A stretch of DNA of 63,745 nt, counting the filler, from Licmophora abbreviata (taxonomy: Eukaryota), in assembly GCA_900291995.1 (NCBI GenBank). It is 10 parts of 10 records of this genome, joined end to end, with 100 filler letters (N's around TTAATTAATTAA, not from the genome) between each part and the next. Parts side by side here need not be neighbours in the genome. Positions count along the whole stretch, not along the records: positions 34,831 to 42,549 come from OLMU01000180.1; 9 more parts are not named here. One strand, written 5' to 3'. The position numbers and the translations under genes were made by a program. Shown here in pieces: positions 9,951 to 61,439 of this stretch; the stretch's first letter is position 1; each line of letters starts with the position of its first letter. The notes beneath the pieces were generated by a model, which worked only from the letters and a program-made list of their open reading frames with translations, did no database searches and was not told the DNA's origin.

Positions 9951-10050
9951 NNNNNNNNNNNNNNNNNNNNNNNNNNNNNNNNNNNNNNNNNNNNTTAATT
10001 AATTAANNNNNNNNNNNNNNNNNNNNNNNNNNNNNNNNNNNNNNNNNNNN
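9951..10050. other. Artificial gap linker N44-TTAATTAATTAA-N44
   Basis: Fixed 100-nt spacer with a six-frame stop core; identical copies at 17267, 19121, 25730, 33258, 34731, 42550, 58337 and 61340. Confidence 0.97.
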
Positions 10051-17266: not shown

Positions 17267-17389
17267 NNNNNNNNNNNNNNNNNNNNNNNNNNNNNNNNNN
17301 NNNNNNNNNNTTAATTAATTAANNNNNNNNNNNNNNNNNNNNNNNNNNNNNNNNNNNNNNNNNNNNATCAACGCGACTAAATTCACATA

Positions 17390-19606
17390 TTAAACTACGA
17401 TCACCGAACTAAACTTGGTAAACGAATTCTGGGGGTCCGTCGCGTTCACATCAACAAGAGTCTCCAATTCAAACTGACCATATTGGTTTGCTTCGAAGAA
17501 AAATCCATCCTCACCGCGAAGGAAAGCGCAGTCGCCGACCCAGTCTGTGACGTTGACAACCGGAGCACCATTCACCTTCATCTTCAACTTCTCGTCGTAC
17601 ACGCCTTTTTGTTTTAGTTCGCCGGGCACGCATCGCCCCCAAGCACAATTGCCCCAGCATACAACGACAACTCCATGGGGCTGCCATCCGCTTCGCAAGT
17701 AAGCCTTCTGCTCAGCTGCATTCGGAAAGGTCAATTTCCGCCAGCCGTATCCTGCCCTGTTGAAGAAGTAGTCCTTGAAGTCGATATCCACAGTCAACCC
17801 ATCGCACTCATTTGGCTCACGTGGATCGTAAGTAAGAGGCATCGGCCCTTTGTCTTTAATAGCGGGATTCACTTTTTCAGCCTTTTCTCTGGAAATACCG
17901 GTATCGTAGCTATTGATTCCGCCAATATTCTCACTGCCCGTTACAATACCGAGATATCTCGCTTCCGCTGGCAGTCTAGCAGTGTGACAAAACGAAGGGC
18001 CGCGGAAAAGAATGGTCGCATTGATCTCTTTGATCGCATCCTCTCCCGTGTCCTCCAGCGGCTCAGGTATCACCGAGCTATAAAACTGCCTATAGTCAGC
18101 GTCTTCCTCAGCTTTGAGCTCGTCAAAGAGGGTTCGATGGTCCTTTGTGGATTCTAGTTCTTTCGTTGCGTCCATCAAGGTATCGGCAAGGAACAGGGCC
18201 ATGATATTCCCAAACATGGCATGCTCCTTCCTGTTGAATAGCGAGTTCACGAGAACAGCACGATTGAAAAGAAGTGAGAGGAATGCACCAATCACAATTC
18301 ACTAATCAAGTTTACAAACAATGCGTACCATCCAGGATGCCATCCGGCTCGTCCCCTTCGCTCCGGGCAATGTTCCCTTGAGTACTTGTTTTCGCCACAG
18401 TACGGATCTCCCTTTTCAAACTGCTCGTTGCACTTATGGTATCGAACAAAGTCGGGAAGGGCGTCGATATCTGCCGCCGACATTCCAAACATGTCCGGAA
18501 GTGCCGATCGCATGGCGTCTGTGTGAGCGGGGTCGACGTAGAGCGCCGAGAGACCATTCCGCTCCACCTTCGCAAGCTGCTCGACGCGACCCTTGAGCAT
18601 ACGTCCCTCAAGATGAATGTCAATAACTGCAGGGCGACCAGGATTGAGTCCAGCACGATTTGCGTAAAAATACTTTCTCCAATAATCAGTGGCCTCCATC
18701 ATTCCATAGTCCCAGGTAATCACGTCAGCGTCTGTCCCAAAAATAGACTCTTGGCAGAGCGCAATCTCCGGGCCGCTGGGAGTACCTCCCATGGCGTAAT
18801 TTCTAGCGGTAAAGTCAATTCCGATGGAGGCAAACACATCTTGCACAGAGCGTTCCATGAAGGCTGTCATACTTTCATTGAATAGATTTCCATGTCCGGC
18901 CGCCGCGGAATGGCCTCCCGTGACCCAGATGAACTCAGAGTAGCTTTCCGGAAAGACTGGCATCGCCTCGTCCTCCGTTGAGCCGTCTTCCAAGCGACGA
19001 TCGGCGACGTCCGTCTCTTTTTCTATTGCCGGGGTACAGACGCATCCATTCACATCCGTCTCTTCGTCGAGAATAGCAATTTGCATCGCGAGTATCTTCA
19101 ATTCGAGCTTTCGCTTGAAGNNNNNNNNNNNNNNNNNNNNNNNNNNNNNNNNNNNNNNNNNNNNTTAATTAATTAANNNNNNNNNNNNNNNNNNNNNNNN
19201 NNNNNNNNNNNNNNNNNNNNTGTTTTCCGTACTGGACCTTGAGCCTCTCGATCATGTCGTTTCGTGCCTCCGTCACGAGACGCAACACCTCCGTGGAGTT
19301 CAGCAAATCGCCATTCCAGTGCTCCGTGCGCTGCTCGTCTCTGACGCTGCATACGTCGGCACACTGGTTGCCCACTGACGGCAGTCTCGCCACCGCCGCC
19401 TTCTTCACAACATCAGCGGCAGTGGCGCCCGCATCAGTCTTGAAAACCAACAGAATGGCAATGAAAGACGCCACGGCAAATGCCAGAATGGCTCGCTCGC
19501 GGTAGTTGGACTTGGCGGGCAGCTGCAATTTCTTCTGCTTGGTTGAAGAGCCTACCAACGGCACACCATCCTCTTCGTCGGCTTCTCTACGAGCGGAAGC
19601 CACCAT
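17390..19606 (-). CDS. Type II membrane SGNH-hydrolase-like protein (spans the gap at 19121)
   Basis: N-terminal TM anchor; GGHSAAAGHGN, RNYAMGG, WDYGM and WHPGW motifs; frame FKRKLELKILAMQ resumes after the gap; intron about 18232-18327. Confidence 0.7.
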
Positions 19607-25229: not shown

Positions 25230-25831
25230 TTGGACCTCGCCGACTATGCCTGCGATGGCGATGGGCCAGGACGCGCCAAAGTATACTTTTTACCACCAAG
25301 CTTGAGCAAGTCAGATCCAATGAACTGGTATGCAATCAGGATCGTAGTCTTGGTAGACCATGCATTGAATGATTGAGCTGGTGCGTCGACAAGGAAGCGT
25401 TTTACTTCGTACCTGGTATGGTAGTCTAGTAGTCTCCGCCGCCGCCATCATCCATTCATTGCAATCTGAAATCCATCGGTTTCGCTTTTATCTATTTCTT
25501 GTCGTCATCCGTCACACGTCACACAGACATCAACCCTTCCTTGATTAGAATTGGTTTTGTTCGGGAACGAAGACAGATCAGGTACCTGTCATCATGACTT
25601 GCAGACTGAAAAAGTTCGGATGTACAAACAGACTGACACCTGTGACAGCATTCGGACACGCTTTGAACTTCCGGCCGTCACGATGATGCGAGGCGCCGCA
25701 ACACTACTTTGTCGCCCAAATAAACCACANNNNNNNNNNNNNNNNNNNNNNNNNNNNNNNNNNNNNNNNNNNNTTAATTAATTAANNNNNNNNNNNNNNN
25801 NNNNNNNNNNNNNNNNNNNNNNNNNNNNNCC

Positions 25832-33034: not shown

Positions 33035-34701
33035 TTAGAACCAGTTTTCGCTTTCCTCTTTCTTCTTTTGAATGCGCTCTTTGTCTTCTGCCGTGAACTT
33101 TAGGACGGTGCCAATGGCCCCCTCCATGTGCTCTCGCACAGCATCGTCCGATGACAGGTAATTCACCAACAAGTTGCGAATGTAAGAAAGCTTGGCCTCT
33201 TCGCTTCCGCGATCCGAAATATTCAGCAGCTACAACATGAGCGAAAGAGAGTGAGTGNNNNNNNNNNNNNNNNNNNNNNNNNNNNNNNNNNNNNNNNNNN
33301 NTTAATTAATTAANNNNNNNNNNNNNNNNNNNNNNNNNNNNNNNNNNNNNNNNNNNNCATGCGTGTACTCACCGCGACGTCGCCACGCTGCTGAGCCTCA
33401 AAAATTTCCTTTGCCTTCTTCCGGTACAATCGAAAAGACTCTTTCAAATCGCGGTATTTGGACTCGTACTTGCCAGCGTCGACCTTTCGTCTTTGATCCC
33501 CAAGTGAATCTGCCTTTTCGACCTCCATTTGCAACCTTGACTCGAGATCTTCCTTTTCCGCCAAACACGTCTCGTACCGTTGTCTCCATTGCGCTGCTAG
33601 TAGTGCCTCAGAGCCAGAGCTTTTGAGAGCATTATTCTCTGCCAGTAATACGTCGTAGGCTTCCTTCCAGTGAGATTCCTGCTCGGTCATTTCGGCCTTG
33701 AGACGCTCGAGCTGTGCATGATCCATCCGAGCCTGCTCTAGTTCCTTTTCCTGTGAGCCAATTACAAATGTAGCGCGTCGGTAAGAAATCAGCATTCCTT
33801 GACTTTGCCCTAAGTTCCACGACAGGTATCGCAGCCGCATAGACTGCCGGTAGCTAGGTACGTACCAAATCCTGTCCTTCGATTCGACTCTTGGCAGTCT
33901 GTACATTGCTGGAGTGCAAATCTCGAATCTGTGCGTCGGCCTGCTTTCTTGCCACTTCGGCTCTCACTCGAAAGCGACGAAAGTCCTCGGTTACTTGCGA
34001 TACAGAATGGCGAGCCTCTTGTTGAATTTGTTCCGATTCTTCCGGAGTGAGCGAGTACGGCGGCAGAGTCAATGGCTCGCCGGTATCCCGACGGATGAAA
34101 TCCAACAAGTCACTCTCCGAGTCGAAACGACGCCAGCGCTTGTATCGCTTAGCAGGAACCGAGTCTAGCTGATCTGGAGAAATGCTTTCAAAGTCGATCA
34201 AGGCCCATATCTCTTCCAGTGTTACATCGCTTCCTTCTCCAGTAGTGACTTTGACTCGTTGGCAGACTCGGACAATCGAGAAGGAGGTTTCACTGGATTC
34301 GCCATTGTCGTCGTCCATGGCGATATCTGCAGCAGCTTCCGAGCGATCCGTGTCCATTTGGTCCTTCATAGTCTTTGTCTCGACTGTGGAAGCAAAAAGA
34401 GGGCAATTTCGTGTGAGTCGGGAGTGGACACTGGACACGACAGTCATTCGCGATAAGCCGGCTTGGTCATGTATGATTAGGACACTGTACCTCTAAATGA
34501 CTCTAGTTCCTTTTCCTGGGCTTCGATCCGTTCCTTGGCCATCTTGAGAAGCGACTTGTACTTGACGTTGGCGTCGCGAAGCTTTGTAATCTGCAACGAC
34601 GCCTTGCTGGCATTCTTGCTGCTGCTGGCGTTGGGAGTCATCGCGTCGTCGGATGCAGCGGCGGCGTTTGTTGCTGCCGCCTTTGGCGTTTCCTCTGTCA
34701 T
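33035..34701 (-). CDS. GRIP-domain golgin-like coiled-coil protein (last intron spans the gap at 33258)
   Basis: Coiled-coil exons; last exon SYIRNLLVNYLSS...AIGTVLKFTAED...NWF* matches the GRIP pattern. Confidence 0.75.
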
Positions 34702-35687
34702 TCTCGTTTTGTTCGGAGGGGTTGCGATCTNNNNNNNNNNNNNNNNNNNNNNNNNNNNNNNNNNNNNNNNNNNNTTAATTAATTAANNNNNNNNNNNNNN
34801 NNNNNNNNNNNNNNNNNNNNNNNNNNNNNNCCCTTTCCGAGTCCTTTCCCTCCTTTGCCGCGACCTAGTAAAAGATGGTGGGATGGGATCGTTAGAATCG
34901 TCGTGGAGCCGAGCGAAGAAAAAAGTATGCCGGTTGCATCGCTAGTACCGCGGTACGGGAGAGTACGACGCACAAAGCAAAGGGCGAATTCTCCATTGTT
35001 TCGTGGCTTCTTAATCTATACACTCAACAGAATGCTCACTACATCCACTTCGCACAATGCTAGAATGTGACAGAAGAGAGGGTTGCACAAGAAAAAAGAA
35101 AACGGCATCACATACCTGACATGGTGTTGGTACAAATCGCCGTGCTGTTGTGTGTTCCGAAAAGCAGAGAGGTCAAACTTGAAACCGAATGATGTCGACT
35201 ACCAGAAGACTCCGTACTTTTCTACATGCTCCATTTTACTACGGATTCGTAGTATACCATTCTCCAAAGTACAAAAAATTGCGGGAAGCTTTTCGTTATC
35301 ACAGCAGCGAGGTACCAAGTACACAGAGTTCTGTTTCTTTCATCGTTGGCAGGTGCGTTTGCGCTGCTCGTTCTATTCTGTCGAGCCTAGCAAAGCTTCC
35401 CCTTGTATTGAAGAATGGTCTGAGAACGCGGAAGAATTGAAGCGCCCATGGTCTACGCCGATTCGAGATATTGTTCCTGGCTGCTCGCACGTTTGATACG
35501 GGAAGCAATTCTTTATTCGTAAAACCCAATTGTGTATTGAAAAGAAACAAAGGAATACAGATTTTATCGTTTCAGTTTCGAATTGGGTTTGTTCTTTGGG
35601 TGCCAAGGCATGATGAAACATTCTCTCGTCGTTCTTACTTCTTTCGCTTTGTGTCGTTCTTATTCTCTCCCGCTCAGTTGACAAAAT

Positions 35688-36206
<519 letters not shown>

Positions 36207-36511: not shown

Positions 36512-38497
36512 CTAGTCCTCCATACTCTCTGCAATGGCATTTCGGAAATCATCGAACGAAATCTTGTCGTCTCCGTCGGAATCGATGAATCCCATAATTT
36601 CTCGTGCTTGGGACTCGCCACCAAACAAATCAACCAAGTCGGATATTTGCAAGTAGTTACCGTCTGACTTGTTGAAGTGATCAAAGGCCATGCGAATCTT
36701 GTCCTCTCGAAGAGCGAGGTTCTTATCCATCGTCGCCGCCAGAAAGTCCTTCCAATTCAACGTATCCTCTCCCGACAATTGCAAGTCTTCGCGCAAGTCC
36801 GTCAGATCCTCTTGCAGCTGTGCAGGAAAGTTGCCTATAGACGAAAGGGGGGAGTCGATGCGTCGCCGCTGAGCATGCCAGCTGCAAACAAAAGACGCGC
36901 CAAAGCTAGGTAACTTACTGTTTGCACGCGCACTGTCGAGGTCCTTGACAGTAATGAGACCGTCATTGTTCTTATCGATTTCTTTGAACGTATCTCCCAA
37001 CGATCCTACCTCTGACTGTGTGAGGTGGGTCGCAATGTCACCAAGCGCCACCTTTTTCAGCTTCTGCATACCCATGTATTTTTGGAATGTTACGCTTCGG
37101 TTGCTAGCGTGCATAATACTAACTTGCCTCTTGGCGTGGTCCTTGTCATTGTTCTCCAGTTGGTTACGAAGCCAAGTATGCCTCAGCGCTTGCGCTGCCG
37201 TCAATCTAGGAACAGAGGCGTGTACGTGGAGAGAGGTGAGACACTGTGCAGAAAGGAATGGTCAGTCACGTCACCGCTAGCATTTTACAAGCAACCTACC
37301 TTTTCGACGGATCCTTACGAAGCAGTGCCTTGATGAATTCCTTGGCAAAGTCGCTGATGTCGTCCCAGTCGGGCGACGGGAAGTCGAATCGGCCCACTCG
37401 GACCGACTCGAAAATTTGCTGATCGGAATCACCATAGAATGGTGGATAGCCGCAAAGCAAAATATATGTAATTACGCCAATAGACCACATGTCACACGAC
37501 TTTGTATACTCTCGATTCAACACTTCGGGAGACACATAGTAGGGAGTTCCGACCTTGGTCTTCATGATGCTGTGATCGGGATTCTCATATCGAGACAAGC
37601 CAAAGTCGATAATCTTGACTGGCGCATCCTCCGCTTCCGTGAGAAATAAGAAGTTTTCGGGCTTGAGGTCACGGTGGACAATGTGTTTCACATCATGACA
37701 GTAGGCGATCGCGTCCAAAATATCGCGGACAAGGGATGCGGCATGGTGTTCGGAAAAGTGTCCCTCTTCAGACTGAGTCTTGGCAATAATCCGATCAAAG
37801 AGTTCCCCGCCCGTGCACAGTTCTGTGACCAGATGAAGGTACTTGCTGTCCTCGTGTACTTCAATCAACTTGATAATGTGAGGGTGGTCGACTTCTTTCA
37901 AAATCTCAATTTCGCGCTTGAGAACCTCAATCTTTCCGACCTTGGATTTGCGAATGGATTTGATTGCATACCATTCTTTGGACTCGCGATTCATGCACTT
38001 TCGAACGACTCCATAATGGCCATGTCCGAGTTCTTTGGGCTGAATGTGGTAGCTGAGTTTAGTGTACCAGCGAAGGGCGAGAGCGAGGTGAGTTGAGCGT
38101 CCGTCGCGACGACAGTTCGACACTAACATGATGCAGGCATGCCGATTCTATCCTGAACTTACTTGACTCGCACGTCGGTAAGCGCATCGGTAATCATGGT
38201 ACCATCAACGCCCCGCCTTTCGTCTCTAGCTTTCTGAAGTTTCGTTTTGTTCGGGTCGGCAAAGGTCTGTACGCTGGGCTGGAGTGACATCACTGGTTTC
38301 TCAGTACGCTCGTCTTCGGAGCCGATCGAGACAATTTGGACCCTGTGTTCTTTCTCTGAGGGTATGGACGACCAAAGAAAAAGGCAAGTTAGGATTTCGG
38401 GGGTTCTCGTAAAGGTTGGCAGCAGACGTACGAGCTGCAGTTCATTTGTACTCACTGCTGGCTGGGGTGGTGGCTTTGCTCCCTCCTGCCGAGACAT
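36512..38497 (-). CDS. CDPK: Calcium-dependent protein kinase (kinase + EF hands), multi-exon
   Basis: LGHGHYGVV, AIK, HRDLKPEN, DFG, GTPYYVSPE; junction KLKKVAL; EF hands DKNNDGLIT and DSDGDDKIS. Confidence 0.92.
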
Positions 38498-39024: not shown

Positions 39025-42000
39025 CTAGCTCGCACTAAACGACAGAATCTCTGCCATATCAGCCCCAATTCCTTCGACCCCATGCAAACGCACACAAATG
39101 TCCATGGGACTCTCCGTCGCGACACTTGTTGATCGAATAGCCTTCGTCTTTGGCGGATTTGGACTGCACCCACCACGTATCAACACTCTAAGCGCTTCGA
39201 CGTGTCCGTTTAGCACGGCCCAGTGAACTGGGGTTCGACACCAACGATCCAGCCAGTCAAACTTCCCTCCCTTGTATTGCTTGCCGTATCCCTGGATCTC
39301 TTTTCGTACCATGGCATCCCTCCATCGATCCATCAAAAAGTCGATGAGTCGACAATGCCCAGCGCGAGCAGCCGAGTGCAGCACCGTCTGCTTGTTGCCG
39401 TCCTTCATCGCGAGAGGCGCGCCGGCGTCTAGTAATAACTTGACACATTCGAGACGATCCAAGTCGTCTTGATTTTTTTGGGAAGAGCCGCTTGACGAAA
39501 GAGCATCTGCGTCTCGTTGAGTCGACGTGCCAGATGCGGCTAGATGCATCGGAAAGGACCCTGTCGCATCGGGAGAGTTGAAGCGACAACCATTGTCAAT
39601 AAGTTTGGCGACCAGGTCGTAACGCCCATGATTGCAAGCCAAATGCAATGGATTGGCACAAAAGCTCTGTTTTCGTTCCATACGGCTGGATGTCTTACTC
39701 AGGCGGCCTCCATGTGCACCAAGATTTGGGTCGACACCGACATCGAGTAAGGCCATGGCGATCGCTGCCTGATTAATTGTTGTTGCTTCAAGGAGTGAGT
39801 GGTAAAGTGACATTTCGTCGTCGGTCTCCGAATCGTCCAAGCTAGCAAGCCGGGATGTAGATGCCATGGTAGCTCCATTCGGAGGTTGGACGACCAGTAT
39901 CGGCGTGTCCTCTCCCTTCGGTTTGCACACGCCATGGCGATCTAGCATGTCAACGTAGTCTCCCAAGCACATTGCTCGAAGCAACTGTGTTACCGCAAAG
40001 GCTCCCTCCAATTGACCGTATTCACCCCCAAGGAAGCGCGTGTCTCGCACCTCGTGATGAAATGCATATAGCGAGCGGACAACTCGGGTCGCAGCAAGAG
40101 AATCGCCACCCAGCATCCCAAAGTCTGCACTAGTAGTCACCAATGGTTGTTGGCAGGGCTGAAGATTCAGGCAATCAATAATATGTCGGGAAACGGTTGA
40201 CCCACAGGATCCGTACTCGCATAGGAGCACGGCTGGGCCGTACCCATTTGAGCCTTGGATGCTGTCGAGAGGTTCACATTGATCGAGAGATGGAAGCCTG
40301 CGACGATCCCTTTTGCCTGTTGGCGACATGGGAAGGATCGATAGGAGTACAAACGCCGCCGGCATAGCTCCGGCCTTGATTCTATCTCTCGCTCTCGTCC
40401 GAAGTAAAACGTACAGAGGGCCAGCAGTGACCAGCACACCCGACTTGAGTTTCGGATGACTCCAAATGCCAAGTTCTCGGCAGCAAGACTCGCCGAGAAC
40501 ACAAAATGCAAGAATCGTTGTCTTGGAATCACAACCGTTGCCGGCGGTGGTTGCAGCGGCTACGCAGTCGGCGACCACAATGTGTTTCCTGTCGTCAACC
40601 TCATGATCTACTAACACAGATTCAATCTCACCCAGCTCGACTCTCACCCCGTTGACTTTCACCATTCCCTCCTCACCGTCAATTCTTCCAAGAACATGCA
40701 GTCGCCCCGTTGTTGCATCTATATAGCCTCGGTCTCCAGTTCGATATGCTTTCAATGAGAGCGAACGGTCGAATGATACGAATTTCGGCCCAGTAAGCTC
40801 AGGGCGATTCAGATACCTGCTATACTTGTCGACTTGGGACCCGCTAAGAACAATCTCTCCAACTACTTGGCCTTGATCGACATTTGCAGAGCGCTCCATG
40901 CTCTCATCACTAGCACCTTCCGCACGTATCATCACTCGCAATCCCTCGAGAGGATATCCCGTGTCCTGACCAGTCGACGACGAGACTTGATCCGAAGCGA
41001 ACACTTCTCCAAACGTTTGGTACACACACGCTTCCGTGACGCCATACGTGAGCACATTCGAAGCGATCTAGGCGGTTCAATGTCATCACACGGTCTCTCC
41101 CTTGCCCACGCCCGCACGACGCGATCCGGGATGGGTTCACCGCCAAGTGCAACGACCCGCAGCAGTGGAAAGTCATCTGGCGATAAGCCTGTATTGTGAA
41201 CCATGCTCCAGAGCGTTGGTGTGCAAAGTACATGCGTCACTTCCAGTCCAGCCAATAGTGCCGGGAGGCTTTGAAGTAGAGCTTTGCGAGGGGCGATTGC
41301 CAAGGTCGCTCCAGCGTCGATAGCAGAAAGACTGTCGGAAAGGCATGGGTCAAACGATAGAGCGCTTGCCAGCAGTACTGTAGAATCGCGACCAATCTTA
41401 TGAGCTACGTTCTTTGCTTTGAGGTAAGAGCGCAAAGAGCGCACGGAAGAGATACAACCTTTCGGTATTCCAGATGTTCCGGAAGTATAAACGATGTGAG
41501 ATACACGATTTGGCTTCTTGTCAAAGTCATCGTCTGTTCTCGAGGAAGACTGGGGCATTCCTTCGATCTCACGTAATAGCTGTAGATGGCCCACTGAATC
41601 ACAACGTTTCTCATCGACCGCAATTTGCAGTCTCGAAAGCAGATCTGCCCGCCCGATGTCACCGTCGTCTTTGATGCTGCGCAATAGTAGGCCTTTCAGG
41701 TCGAGGAGGATGGGGCATCGCGGGCGGTGAATCCCGTCCACCATTGTCGTCTCGTCGCACACAGAAATCTTCGAAACGGATGTTTCGAGTCGGTCCCAGC
41801 CGTCCCCCGACATGGATAGTATCAAAGCGGGCCTCGAATCATTCAACATGTGAAGAATGCGCTCCTTTCCTTCACACGGTTCCACGGGTACCAAGATTGC
41901 GAAAGGAGTCGGTGTCGTCGATGAGGGCTCATTCAACATGTGGACGGCCAGGATAGACAGAGGGAGAAAAGGGCCCTCCGGAATCGCGACGGCGACTGGT

Positions 42001-42299
42001 ATTCCTATCTCTTGAGGGCCAAACTTCGCCTGAACAGGTAGTTCGGAGAGAAGTTTTCTAAGCTCGCGAGCAAGTAGAACAGAGGCTAGAAAAAGCGACT
42101 CGTATGAAATAGTTTTGACAGCCAGTCGATCGACATGAGCTTCGTCCAGATTGACGTGAAGGGATGCCGCAGAAAGCTGGCGAGTGATCGATATTAGCTC
42201 TTCGTCCCAGTAGGAGCACGACATCTGCGCTTCATCATTGATCCACTGTATCGCCGGTCTCATGAGCCAGCAAGAAGATGTCGATTCATCCTCTGGCAT
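39025..42299 (-). CDS. NRPS-like adenylation + carrier (T) + ankyrin-repeat protein; split by a 1-nt frameshift near 41050
   Basis: A3 YTSGTSGIPKG, A4 FDP, GGE, A5 TYGVTE, A7 YRTGD, A8 GR...VKVNGVRVELGEIE, A10 PTGK; T-domain LGGDSL; ankyrins NPLHLAC, TVLHSAA, TPVHWAV. Confidence 0.85.
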
Positions 42300-43018
42300 A
42301 CTTTAGCCCAATGACAAGTCAGATCACGCTGGCTGGCGTTCTCTTGCCATGGTCGTCATAAATGTGGAGACGTTGTTGAATGTGGATATCTTCTGTGATG
42401 GATTCGCACTACTTAGAGAGATGAGACGACTAGCGACGCCAACAAGAGGGCTCTTATTATACCGCGCAGGTGCATGACAGACGAATGATGCAGCATTTTT
42501 TCTTTTAGAAATGGGTTTTCCTTATTTTGAATTAATTTTTAATTCTTTTNNNNNNNNNNNNNNNNNNNNNNNNNNNNNNNNNNNNNNNNNNNNTTAATTA
42601 ATTAANNNNNNNNNNNNNNNNNNNNNNNNNNNNNNNNNNNNNNNNNNNNATTTATTTTTAATTATTGTTTTGGTCTTGGTAGTTTATTTTTTGTCATGAA
42701 TTCGTAGTAGTACACTCTTTCTCACATATCCTCGTCCCGGAGCTCGTAGCAAAGCATCCGTAGAAAAACTTCCAAACCCTACCTGCAATGATGCTTACCG
42801 GTAAAGCCAAAATTAAATATTGGAAACGTCAAGCATTCCAAGATGGAAAGCTGGGCTGATCAAACCGGGGATCATCTCGTAGACATAGAGAGAGCAAAAC
42901 TCGCAACGTATCGAAACATAAGTAGCCGACTGTGCCCTAGAGAATACAACCAGCTGCCACAGAAGCCGATGTCCACCGACACAGACCCTCCGAGGCTCCT
43001 CCCTTCTCCACGCACGTC

Positions 43019-43964
43019 TCACGGCACAGACCTACCCCAGAAAAGCTTCTGGACCTTGGAAGAATTGCGAAAGCCCGCTTCGGAGCCAAACGTCAAGACC
43101 GCCACGAGCCGGCTACAAGTTCCCTCCACTCGGGTTACGCGATGTAGAGACTTGGACCCCGAGAAAATAGAAAGCGTCCCCGGCGTAAACTTTAGTGTAT
43201 GTAATGGTGGAGGGGCCGTGTTGGCGGGTTCACAAAATGCGCTACTGTGGACAGTATCGCAGTACCGACGCAGTGTAGCGGCGACTGAATGCAATGCTAG
43301 ATCGTCGTTGGCGCGTCGTCGAAAGGGATCGGTGTATTGAAACAAGCCCGTCTTGGGTTCTGATGCCTCTTGTAGCATCAAGGTAGTGGAAAACTCCGAC
43401 TCGTCGAAGTGAAAGGAATGGTGATAGGTCGGCCGGAAGACGTTGATCGAACAACATCCGAGTGGGTCATCAGACAAGAAGAGATCATCTCCGTCGTTTA
43501 CAATCATGGACACCAGTCGCCGCAGGTTCGGATGTCGATACAGTGCTGCCAATGAAGAGTCCTCTGGAAGCTCATCGAATGCAATCGACGCCACCTGTGT
43601 CCTCATTTCGTAGTTCCGGACCGAATTCGACGGAAACGACGGGTCGGCCGCAAGCAGATAGGCCGTGTGGGAATCGTCAGTGGTAAAGGCCGCATCTTCA
43701 CGTTCTCGAGCTTCCTGAATACCTCTGGACAGGGCGTCGGCGGTGACAAAATGAGAAAATGTCACTGCCAATAGAACGAGGGGCAGTAGGTGACATAGTG
43801 AGCGCGGCTGCTCGGCGCGGACATTGCACAGGAAAGCACGGCGCTCCATTCCAAAAAGTGATACCTGCGCCGGTCTTTCTATACTGCTCCTTGGCTTTCC
43901 TAATCTGCTCAAAAGCCTCCAATGACGATAGGTCAGCCAGCCAAGGGTACCGTTCAAAGTTCAT
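43019..43964 (-). CDS. Fe(II)/2-oxoglutarate oxygenase, BesD/HalD/ArpA-like
   Basis: Intron 43765-43864 joins MNFERYP...KTGA to VTFSHF; HSFHFD, TTLMLQ, GLFQY, SLHRVTRV, RLVAVL. Confidence 0.75.
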
Positions 43965-57620: not shown

Positions 57621-58799
57621 AATGCCCCCTCTTAGAGTCTTCGATTCATTCCGCTGAGATAGTTTAGTCGGCATGAAGTATCCTGAGTTGCTCCACCGGT
57701 ATGACGGAATACCCCTGGCATATCACTTGATACACACTGCTTTCGAGTAGTGTGCAATAAACAAAGAATATTATGCGTTTTTTCGGCGCAGATCGGAGAC
57801 CACATGAAGAGAACGGTCTGTGCACCACACGTTTCGCCACGGCTCGATCTACCCGCATGATATGCCACTCCAACCTCAGGCCGACAAAGCAATGCTGGTT
57901 CCTTTTGTTGATCTCCAACGTTTACGTTGAAGATCTTCCAGAGCAGCTTGAGCTCTTGCTTCGTCCCAGTCCACCCACCCTGTGCGGCTTGACCTCGGGG
58001 TGCCCTAACTTCCGGGTTCCTGGAAACCGGACCTCGAGGTCTGTGAGGTCGGTTAGGTGTGGCAAACACCCCAACAACCAACCAGTTTGCTTCGAGGGTC
58101 ACAGCAAGAGTACTGAAAACGGAGAACCGAGCGAGAGAGGGCAATCGTGCAACGATTGACGAGACTCAGGGATAAAAAATTGCGCCCCCAGTGACTGTGA
58201 CACAGACACACCCGACCACACCACATCGGGAGCTCGAATCATTCGATTTAGCTAGGCAGAGACGCTGACCTCCAAGCAAGCCAGCACAATCGACCAACCC
58301 GAGCCGTGGCGGTTTCTGTACAATTCTACGTGATCCNNNNNNNNNNNNNNNNNNNNNNNNNNNNNNNNNNNNNNNNNNNNTTAATTAATTAANNNNNNNN
58401 NNNNNNNNNNNNNNNNNNNNNNNNNNNNNNNNNNNNTGACAGTGCGAAGTCGAATCGTACCGTCTCGTGTTCTCGTTGCTTCCGCGCAAGACGATTGCAA
58501 TGATGCTCCTGTCTAAGCGCATCGCGTCCCCATAGATGAGCGGAGGCATACAAGCGATCCCCGGCAAACTCAAACGAAGTCGATTCGATAGATGACCCGG
58601 GTCCTTCTCATGATCTTCGCGAACTAAGGCCCAATCCTGATGAAGCTTCATTGCAGTCATTATCGTCATTCAGGAAGAGTCGCAAGCAACATGCACTACT
58701 ACCAAGTGATTTATATCGGAGTGTGACTAACATGAAGACGCATTCCAAAACAACTGATGTCGAGAGGGCGTGCGCAACTTTCAACATGAATGAACACTC

Positions 58800-61339: not shown

Positions 61340-61439
61340 NNNNNNNNNNNNNNNNNNNNNNNNNNNNNNNNNNNNNNNNNNNNTTAATTAATTAANNNNN
61401 NNNNNNNNNNNNNNNNNNNNNNNNNNNNNNNNNNNNNNN

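Follow-up and report, generated by a model that had tools for sequence, protein, structure and literature searches.

An NRPS-like adenylation-carrier gene with an ankyrin-repeat tail in the diatom Licmophora abbreviata and its relatives in algae

The animal protein AASDH (ACSF4-U26) is a stand-alone eukaryotic pair of an adenylation (A) and a thiolation (T), or carrier, domain of the nonribosomal peptide synthetase (NRPS) type. It is described as beta-alanine-activating and as possibly acting in post-translational modification (PMC10531068, citing Drozak 2014). By layout, it is the closest known idea to the gene considered here, an A-T-ankyrin (A-T-ANK) gene at 39025..42299 on the minus strand of a 63,745-nucleotide stretch of DNA from the diatom Licmophora abbreviata (the window, meaning the whole stretch that was analysed). 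In both proteins, the A-T pair is followed by a repeat scaffold instead of a catalytic release domain. AASDH differs in that its tail is a PQQ-like beta-propeller, not ankyrin, and in that its substrate is known. The insect protein Ebony likewise has one A-T module, and its C-terminal domain, which is not a condensation (C) domain, picks the acceptor of the thioester-bound acid. That tail is reportedly a catalytic, amine-selecting domain, and in being catalytic it sets Ebony apart from A-T-ANK; ankyrin repeats are, to our knowledge, not known to catalyse.

Diatoms and picoalgae account for a large share of ocean photosynthesis, and their thiotemplate enzymes are barely explored. PtNRPS1 of Phaeodactylum, with the layout A-T-R1-R2, makes tryptophanol; reported only in 2026, it was the first NRPS-like enzyme of a diatom whose product became known (PMC13194791). 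It resembles A-T-ANK in that it consists of one NRPS-like module, ends in an atypical tail and is conserved in several diatoms; unlike A-T-ANK, it releases its product through two reductase (R) domains and belongs to a different family. The word 'ankyrin' does not occur in the PtNRPS1 paper (PMC13194791). A survey of Symbiodiniaceae describes single polyketide synthase (PKS) or NRPS domains fused to ankyrin, HEAT or pentatricopeptide (PPR) repeats and reads them as trans-acting units (PMC6361889). These fusions are like A-T-ANK in joining mono-functional thiotemplate domains to protein-interaction repeats; they are mentioned there as part of the survey only, and none is characterised (PMC6361889). 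A-T-ANK adds another family of single modules to that of PtNRPS1, conserved in diatoms and also present in a further clade of about 25% identity. The invariance of its active-site motifs and carrier serine, and the near-invariance of its ankyrin groove, imply a single conserved substrate and a single conserved ligand. As a working analogy for an ankyrin-guided acyl hand-off, we used the palmitoyltransferases zDHHC17/13 and the protein ACBD6, in which a module holding an acyl thioester or acyl-CoA is combined with ankyrin repeats that recruit a client protein or enzyme. Their chemistry and folds are unrelated to those of A-T-ANK, and there is no homology.

The A-T-ANK gene is written in the window as two long overlapping open reading frames (ORFs) on the minus strand, 40932-42302 (456 codons, stop to stop) and 39025-41067 (680 codons). 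The ATG of the first frame, at 42297-42299, lies directly after a stop codon. The bounds given in the first-pass annotation, 39025..42299, proved to be the exact ATG-to-stop span, and the frame change that it implied is present at 41050-41067. The parts of the gene are as follows.

39025..42299, minus strand: whole A-T-ANK gene, in two reading frames, from ATG 42297-42299 to stop TAG 39025-39027
41097..42299, minus strand: first frame, residues 1-401, N-terminal part of the adenylation domain (Pfam AMP-binding, TIGR01733)
41050..41067, minus strand: frame-shift zone, one base missing (homologue alignment and sequence)
40270..41064, minus strand: second frame, residues 1-265, rest of the adenylation domain (TIGR01733, invariant K251, Foldseek matches to modules of A domain and peptidyl carrier protein, A-PCP)
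39934..40227, minus strand: carrier (thiolation) domain, second-frame residues 280-377 (GGDSL, fold model, conservation)
39841..39933, minus strand: linker, second-frame residues 378-408, disordered and poorly conserved (predicted local distance difference test score, pLDDT, and conservation)
39028..39840, minus strand: ankyrin-repeat domain, second-frame residues 409-679, about six repeats (Pfam, AlphaFold2, matches to designed ankyrin repeat proteins, DARPins)

A-T-ANK is one gene, not two, because all 106 of the 106 full-length homologues (950-1200 aa) are collinear with it and continuous across the break site in the alignment, and because P0021, P0051 and P0092, members that come from transcriptomes, each consist of one ORF. 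These results contradict the idea of two separate genes, against which the first-pass annotation had wished its reading to be checked.

The first frame matched Pfam AMP-binding (PF00501) over residues 102-404 (E 8.1e-26; 91.1 bits, cut-off 29.9). The amino-acid adenylation family TIGR01733 (NCBIfam, 409 positions) was shared out between the frames, with positions 105-260 in the first and 267-402 in the second. The two halves scored 85.7 and 81.1 bits, each under the cut-off of 317.4 because the domain is split across frames. Positions 260 and 267 abut across the break; therefore, the two frames are halves of one A domain. A near-complete set of adenylation motifs had been claimed for this gene, and A3, A4, A5, A7, A8 and A10 were all located, together with a GGE motif.

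41457-41489, minus strand: motif A3, first frame
41334-41357, minus strand: motif A4 with FDP, first frame
41130-41150, minus strand: GGE motif, first frame
41014-41049, minus strand: motif A5, second frame
40726-40746, minus strand: motif A7, second frame
40621-40689, minus strand: motif A8, second frame
40303-40332, minus strand: motif A10, second frame, with Lys251 at 40312-40314

The A10 lysine, Lys251, was invariant in 78/78 aligned sequences. A sequence search of the PDB returned NRPS adenylation domains as the nearest solved sequences to the A domain. We predicted the structures of the window second frame (pLDDT 84.8, predicted template modelling score, pTM, 0.81) and of the full-length homologue P0001, which is 54% identical (pLDDT 86.1, pTM 0.85), with AlphaFold2. 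The best Foldseek matches of the P0001 model were A-PCP modules in the thiolation state, LgrA (5es8_B, E 2.7e-28, 753 columns) and holo-EntF (5t3d), and 1amu_A was matched as well (E 2.2e-26). By profile, motifs and fold, the A part is an NRPS-type adenylation domain of the ANL superfamily.

Ten specificity positions were read from the family alignment, with PheA numbering assigned by hand. They were D-P-S-L-A-G-T-V-Y-K in diatoms, D-P-G-A-T-G-T-V-Y-K in the second clade and D-P-G-G-A-G-T-V-Y-K in the distant relative P0259. An Asp at the first pocket position is typical of amino-acid-activating domains; the remaining residues fit no specificity code known to us. The code is near-constant within diatoms, suggesting one conserved substrate.

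The carrier domain contains GGDSL at 40096-40110 (minus strand), with Ser322 of the second frame at 40099-40101, where the first-pass annotation had placed a carrier serine (about 40100). The five residues G319, G320, D321, S322 and L323 were invariant in 78/78 aligned sequences. In the AlphaFold2 model, Ser322 begins helix 322-337, at its N-terminal first turn; this helix is part of a four-helix bundle modelled with pLDDT >90, and the flanking helices 288-299, 358-363 and 367-376 give the topology of a carrier protein. Helix 2 is followed by a glycine-rich insert that is peculiar to the A-T-ANK family, with invariant R343, G346, G347 and G350. Measured as the mean share of the majority residue among aligned homologues, the carrier is the best-conserved part of the protein (0.66), followed by the A domain (0.55), the ankyrin domain (0.54) and the linker (0.17).

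Five Pfam ankyrin families matched the second frame with E values from 1e-13 to 1e-19, the strongest including Ank_4 (E 1.3e-19) and Ank_2 (E 1.9e-18), and nothing else matched it at E<=0.01. Four ankyrin cores of the TPLH type were read.

39625-39654, minus strand: TPLH-type ankyrin core
39529-39555, minus strand: TPLH-type ankyrin core
39355-39390, minus strand: TPLH-type ankyrin core
39202-39237, minus strand: TPLH-type ankyrin core

The AlphaFold2 model showed an N-terminal cap helix pair and five more helix pairs, reaching to residue 678, which makes about six repeats in place of the 'about four' estimated at first pass. Foldseek matched the tail to DARPins (7qnl, TM 0.69, root-mean-square deviation 4.0, 266 columns; 6moj_A, TM 0.68), and a PDB sequence search with the tail returned DARPins and ankyrin-1/2. 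The ankyrin identity of the C-terminus, on which the first-pass reading depended, was therefore upheld by profiles, helix pairs and DARPin matches. One public marine metagenome run carries an in-frame 6-base insertion behind 39510, in a low-complexity loop of ankyrin repeat 2, and several single-base differences, which we read as frame-keeping population variants.

The groove of the ankyrin domain was defined by the canonical target-contact positions of ankyrin proteins, in the register used in DARPin design. At these positions, F468 was found in 75/78 sequences, Q559 in 73/78, R567 in 78/78, W608 in 76/78, R610 in 77/78 and N619 in 73/77. Q559, R567, R610, W615 and N619 were also kept in the clade of about 25% identity and in P0259. 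A groove so nearly invariant argues for a conserved ligand. A contrast between groove and outer-face conservation was dropped, the chosen 'outer' positions having proved to be core residues.

No C, thioesterase (TE), R, PQQ-propeller or amine-selecting domain was found in the window gene by Pfam at E<=0.01, where only AMP-binding and ankyrin families matched. The full-length relatives P0001 and P0024 contained no condensation, thioesterase, reductase, propeller or other extra domain, and in all ten of the ten longer relatives (1195-1281 aa), AMP-binding and ankyrin were the only domains, with no fused partner. The absence of a catalytic release domain, noted at first pass, was thus borne out by every one of these scans. 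The tail is all-helical in the AlphaFold2 model and is therefore not a propeller of the AASDH kind. It is not a reductase of the kind found in Lys2, CAR, ATRR and PtNRPS1 either: TIGR03443 covered the A-T part alone (residues 105-331, E 4e-8). With neither a condensation nor a thioesterase domain, the protein is not a canonical NRPS module.

A word-index search found 489 relatives at E<=1e-3, and the counts of domains and names that follow rest on the best 120 of these. AMP-binding and ankyrin were both present in 112/120; the other 8 were short forms of 572-816 aa that cover A5 onward only. The layout is thus conserved in algae, as the search across algal proteomes proposed at first pass was meant to find out. 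Among the matches listed, the named members are diatoms, centric and pennate (Nitzschia, Pseudo-nitzschia, Thalassiosira, Skeletonema, Mayamaea, Amphora and Cylindrotheca), and the longer relatives add Epithemia and Attheya. The best identity of the window protein to any relative was 54-56%. In a quick maximum-likelihood tree, it fell inside the named diatoms, with a support of 99 for a 26-row clade in the Shimodaira-Hasegawa-like approximate likelihood ratio test (SH-aLRT) and a position within that clade that was not fixed. An exhaustive search of cluster representatives returned family members to about E-70 and then giant bacterial NRPSs. In the ESM Atlas, clusters named 'Ligase/ankyrin repeat fused' scored 0.85 and 0.83, below 0.9, and were taken as a lead only.

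Relatives were encoded by 490 of the 549 metagenome stretches that matched our patterns. These contigs also contained a second A-T-ANK clade of 24-29% identity (for example L040-L066, L055:9026-11809 and L043:3464-6388). Its ORFs, of 927-975 codons, are single and uninterrupted; the contigs that bear them have a G+C content of 42-49%, reach 137 kb in length and are probably from picoeukaryotes. AMP-binding and ankyrin were found in 6/6 of the second-clade ORFs scanned, and no Arm family was found in these six at E<=0.001. A word-index search with P0165 gave 15 matches, of which one was a new relative, P0259 (EukProt), 25% identical and collinear from A5 to the end. The diatom family, the second clade and P0259 have in common PKGC after A3, FDP at A4, TYG[VL]TE at A5, GGDSL or GADSL, the long carrier insert and the cores of repeats 3 and 4. 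The same layout at about 25% identity indicates that the A-T-ANK family is conserved and not peculiar to diatoms. The architecture is already catalogued in databases, since automatic annotations record it as 'acyl-CoA synthetase/ankyrin repeat protein' or 'non-ribosomal peptide synthetase family protein', and it is unexplained. A full-text literature search, with supplements outside its scope, found no paper characterising an A-T-ankyrin enzyme; earlier characterisation, which would have told against the novelty claimed at first pass, was accordingly not met with there. The peptide patterns also caught a contrast case, a canonical A-T-TE NRPS-like enzyme at L067:1276-3912 (PP-binding 51.3 bits, Thioesterase 115.3 bits), on a contig of 66% G+C that is probably bacterial, judged by composition and layout.

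We examined how the ankyrin part might sit on the rest of the enzyme. The linker has pLDDT <50 at second-frame residues 396-410, and the pTM of the single-chain models is high (0.85 and 0.81) despite this floppy connection, which suggests that the ankyrin domain may have a fixed place on the enzyme. For a complex prediction, P0001 was split into residues 40-770 (A-T) and residues 800-1064 (ANK). The two parts gave an ipSAE of 0.48, and the best of 3 controls gave 0.00; the runs shared at least 92% of contacts, with a partner pLDDT of at least 76. The mark of this test was reached by 51/78 solved complexes and 2/108 mismatched pairs; of those 78 solved complexes, just 5 reached it with a score of 0.60 or less, as did each of the 4 passing mismatches out of 180. 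The prediction thus weakly suggests that the ankyrin part packs on the A-T body of its own enzyme.

On these grounds we lean towards the view that the window gene is a diatom copy of a conserved algal NRPS-like A-T-ankyrin enzyme that would work in three steps. First, the A domain, which is evident from its profile, motifs and fold, would use ATP to adenylate a single kind of carboxylic acid, which is probably an amino acid. Second, the acid would be transferred as a thioester to the phosphopantetheine arm of the enzyme's own carrier at Ser322, a serine present in the expected fold. We infer these two steps from what the domain matches, motifs and folds show and from the known chemistry of A-T pairs in NRPSs. 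Third, and this is the weakest step, the ankyrin domain, apparently lying against the A-T body, would offer a conserved concave groove in place of a release domain, and the groove would select the recipient of the acid, either a partner enzyme or a protein that accepts it. In our best reading, the ankyrin domain may serve the carrier arm as its second station, lying as a platform on the A-T body and choosing the acceptor. The cargo could go to a partner enzyme, to the side chain of a protein or to a small molecule. The ankyrin-guided hand-off conceived in the first-pass annotation is a reasonable possibility.

A bolder form of this mechanism, which we regard as quite unlikely, is that A-T-ANK is a ribosome-independent writer of protein modifications. 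Much as the ankyrin repeats of zDHHC17 deliver its clients, the groove (R567, W608, R610 and N619) would recruit a target protein, a side chain of which would attack the carrier thioester. If true, marine phytoplankton would possess an acylation system that is both new and conserved, and by analogy this would suggest a role for the animal A-T-propeller protein AASDH. More broadly, the acceptor of A-T-ANK could reveal a general eukaryotic use of carrier-bound acids outside peptide synthesis, because A-T-ANK parallels the unsolved AASDH in its A-T pair and repeat scaffold.

Several observations weigh against the proposed enzyme and its mechanism. The window copy is out of frame, and as written it can give no full-length protein. 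The Pfam carrier profile PP-binding (PF00550) reached 16.0 bits (E 0.015) over second-frame residues 270-400, short of its cut-off of 20.8, and PF00550 was not among the precomputed domains of any of the 120 relatives listed. The pocket code matched no code known to us, so no substrate is proposed; of the specificity prediction suggested at first pass, the ten residues were obtained and the substrate was not. At an ipSAE of 0.48, a complex prediction is more often wrong than right unless the complex was likely beforehand, and, if right, it describes a contact in cis and not docking in trans. When flanking ORFs were clustered across 34 diatom-type loci and the window contig, no conserved neighbour was found beyond same-species groups. 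No partner was identified among the neighbours of the 34 loci or as an extra domain in the ten longer relatives. Cyclic-nucleotide-binding (cNMP-binding) ORFs were considered as a partner and rejected: they occurred at 3/34 loci only, on varying sides and strands, and were taken as chance or local synteny. These ORFs lie within a few kb of A-T-ANK at L003:5749-6477, L020:13715-14575 and L032:2807-3175; those in L003 and L020 have a Pfam cyclic-nucleotide match, and the one in L032 merely clusters with a domain-less ORF beside them.

One alternative, possible though not probable in our judgement, gives the ankyrin domain a purely internal part, as a structural platform for the A-T pair or as its regulator, much as the C domain is for the A domain in canonical modules. 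A free small-molecule nucleophile, hydrolysis, or an enzyme recognising the carrier rather than the ankyrins would then bring about release. The high pTM of the single-chain models across a disordered linker agrees with such a platform, and the split-chain score, above that of the best control, lends it weak support. The near-invariance of the ligand positions, even across clades at 25% identity, speaks for a ligand instead; a contact in cis would explain it equally well, so it is not decisive.

We then considered the frame break itself. The second frame is closed upstream by TAG 41068-41070, yet the conserved A5 has to be read in it from about 41052; hence a one-base shift lies within 41050-41067. 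The segment from a conserved W-A-R to A5 is variable among homologues (7-20 residues). An intron at the break was rejected: the nearby GT..AG intervals, of 24 and 22 nt, have the wrong phase, and the only one that fits the phase, of 53 nt, would excise the conserved W-A-R. The break could be real and the gene a recently inactivated pseudogene in this organism, with the family possibly functional elsewhere, which we consider unlikely. In its favour, the break stands in the window sequence; a GT-AG interval of the right phase is absent between the last conserved first-frame residue and the first conserved second-frame residue; and among contigs from four public runs, 41052-41165 is without coverage, so that no public contig spans the site to contradict it. 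Against it, about 3.3 kb of sequence holds no second lesion; apart from the break, both frames stay open and can be aligned with homologues over their whole length, and every core motif is intact. Moreover, the window is built of short metagenome-type contigs joined by spacers, and single-base consensus errors are common in such contigs. We consider a consensus or assembly error clearly more likely than a real lesion, because the break stands alone in a coding sequence of about 3.3 kb that is well conserved elsewhere.

Turning to the carrier, we think it very unlikely that the domain is vestigial and the protein an ordinary acyl-CoA or acyl-AMP ligase with ankyrins that merely localise it. Such a ligase would suit the name 'acyl-CoA synthetase/ankyrin repeat protein' in the source annotations of relatives and the PP-binding score under the Pfam cut-off. 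The distant relatives P0165 (17.7 bits) and P0172 (19.2 bits) also failed that cut-off; P0259 (26.1 bits) and P0154 (24.4 bits) passed it. The best family match is TIGR01733, the closest structures are NRPS A-PCP modules, and an invariant GGDSL in the best-conserved part of the protein is at odds with a vestige. The invariant motif, the AlphaFold2 topology, the two relatives over the cut-off and the highest conservation in the protein together argue that this is a real carrier despite the sub-threshold profile.

A split into two genes, an A-domain fragment and a T-ANK protein, is suggested by the overlapping ORFs in different frames and is hardly credible, the split falling within the A domain between A4 and A5, at a point where the 106 homologues are unbroken. 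The members that come from transcriptomes also consist of one ORF each, and one of them, P0092, is labelled 'type:complete' by its source.

The A-T-ANK contig occupies 34831-42549 of the window, which consists of separate contigs joined by nine spacers of the form N44-TTAATTAATTAA-N44. Because the window chains separate contigs, genes with a spacer between them may lie apart in the genome. The spacers are as follows.

9951-10050: spacer
17267-17366: spacer
19121-19220: spacer
25730-25829: spacer
33258-33357: spacer
34731-34830: spacer
42550-42649: spacer
58337-58436: spacer
61340-61439: spacer

On the next contig, a 313-codon ORF at 43019-43960 (minus strand) matched Halogenase D (HalD) below the cut-off (E 3.8e-4; 20.4 bits against 26). 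On the A-T-ANK contig, a histone H3-type gene was found at 35736-36206 on the plus strand (Pfam Histone, E 4.6e-47). Directly downstream of the A-T-ANK gene lies a protein kinase gene of the calcium-dependent type, at 36512-38147 on the minus strand. Its kinase domain is at 37296-38147 (Pkinase, E 1.5e-71), and its EF hands, at 36512-37261, are in another frame; an intron or another frame change between the two is therefore likely.

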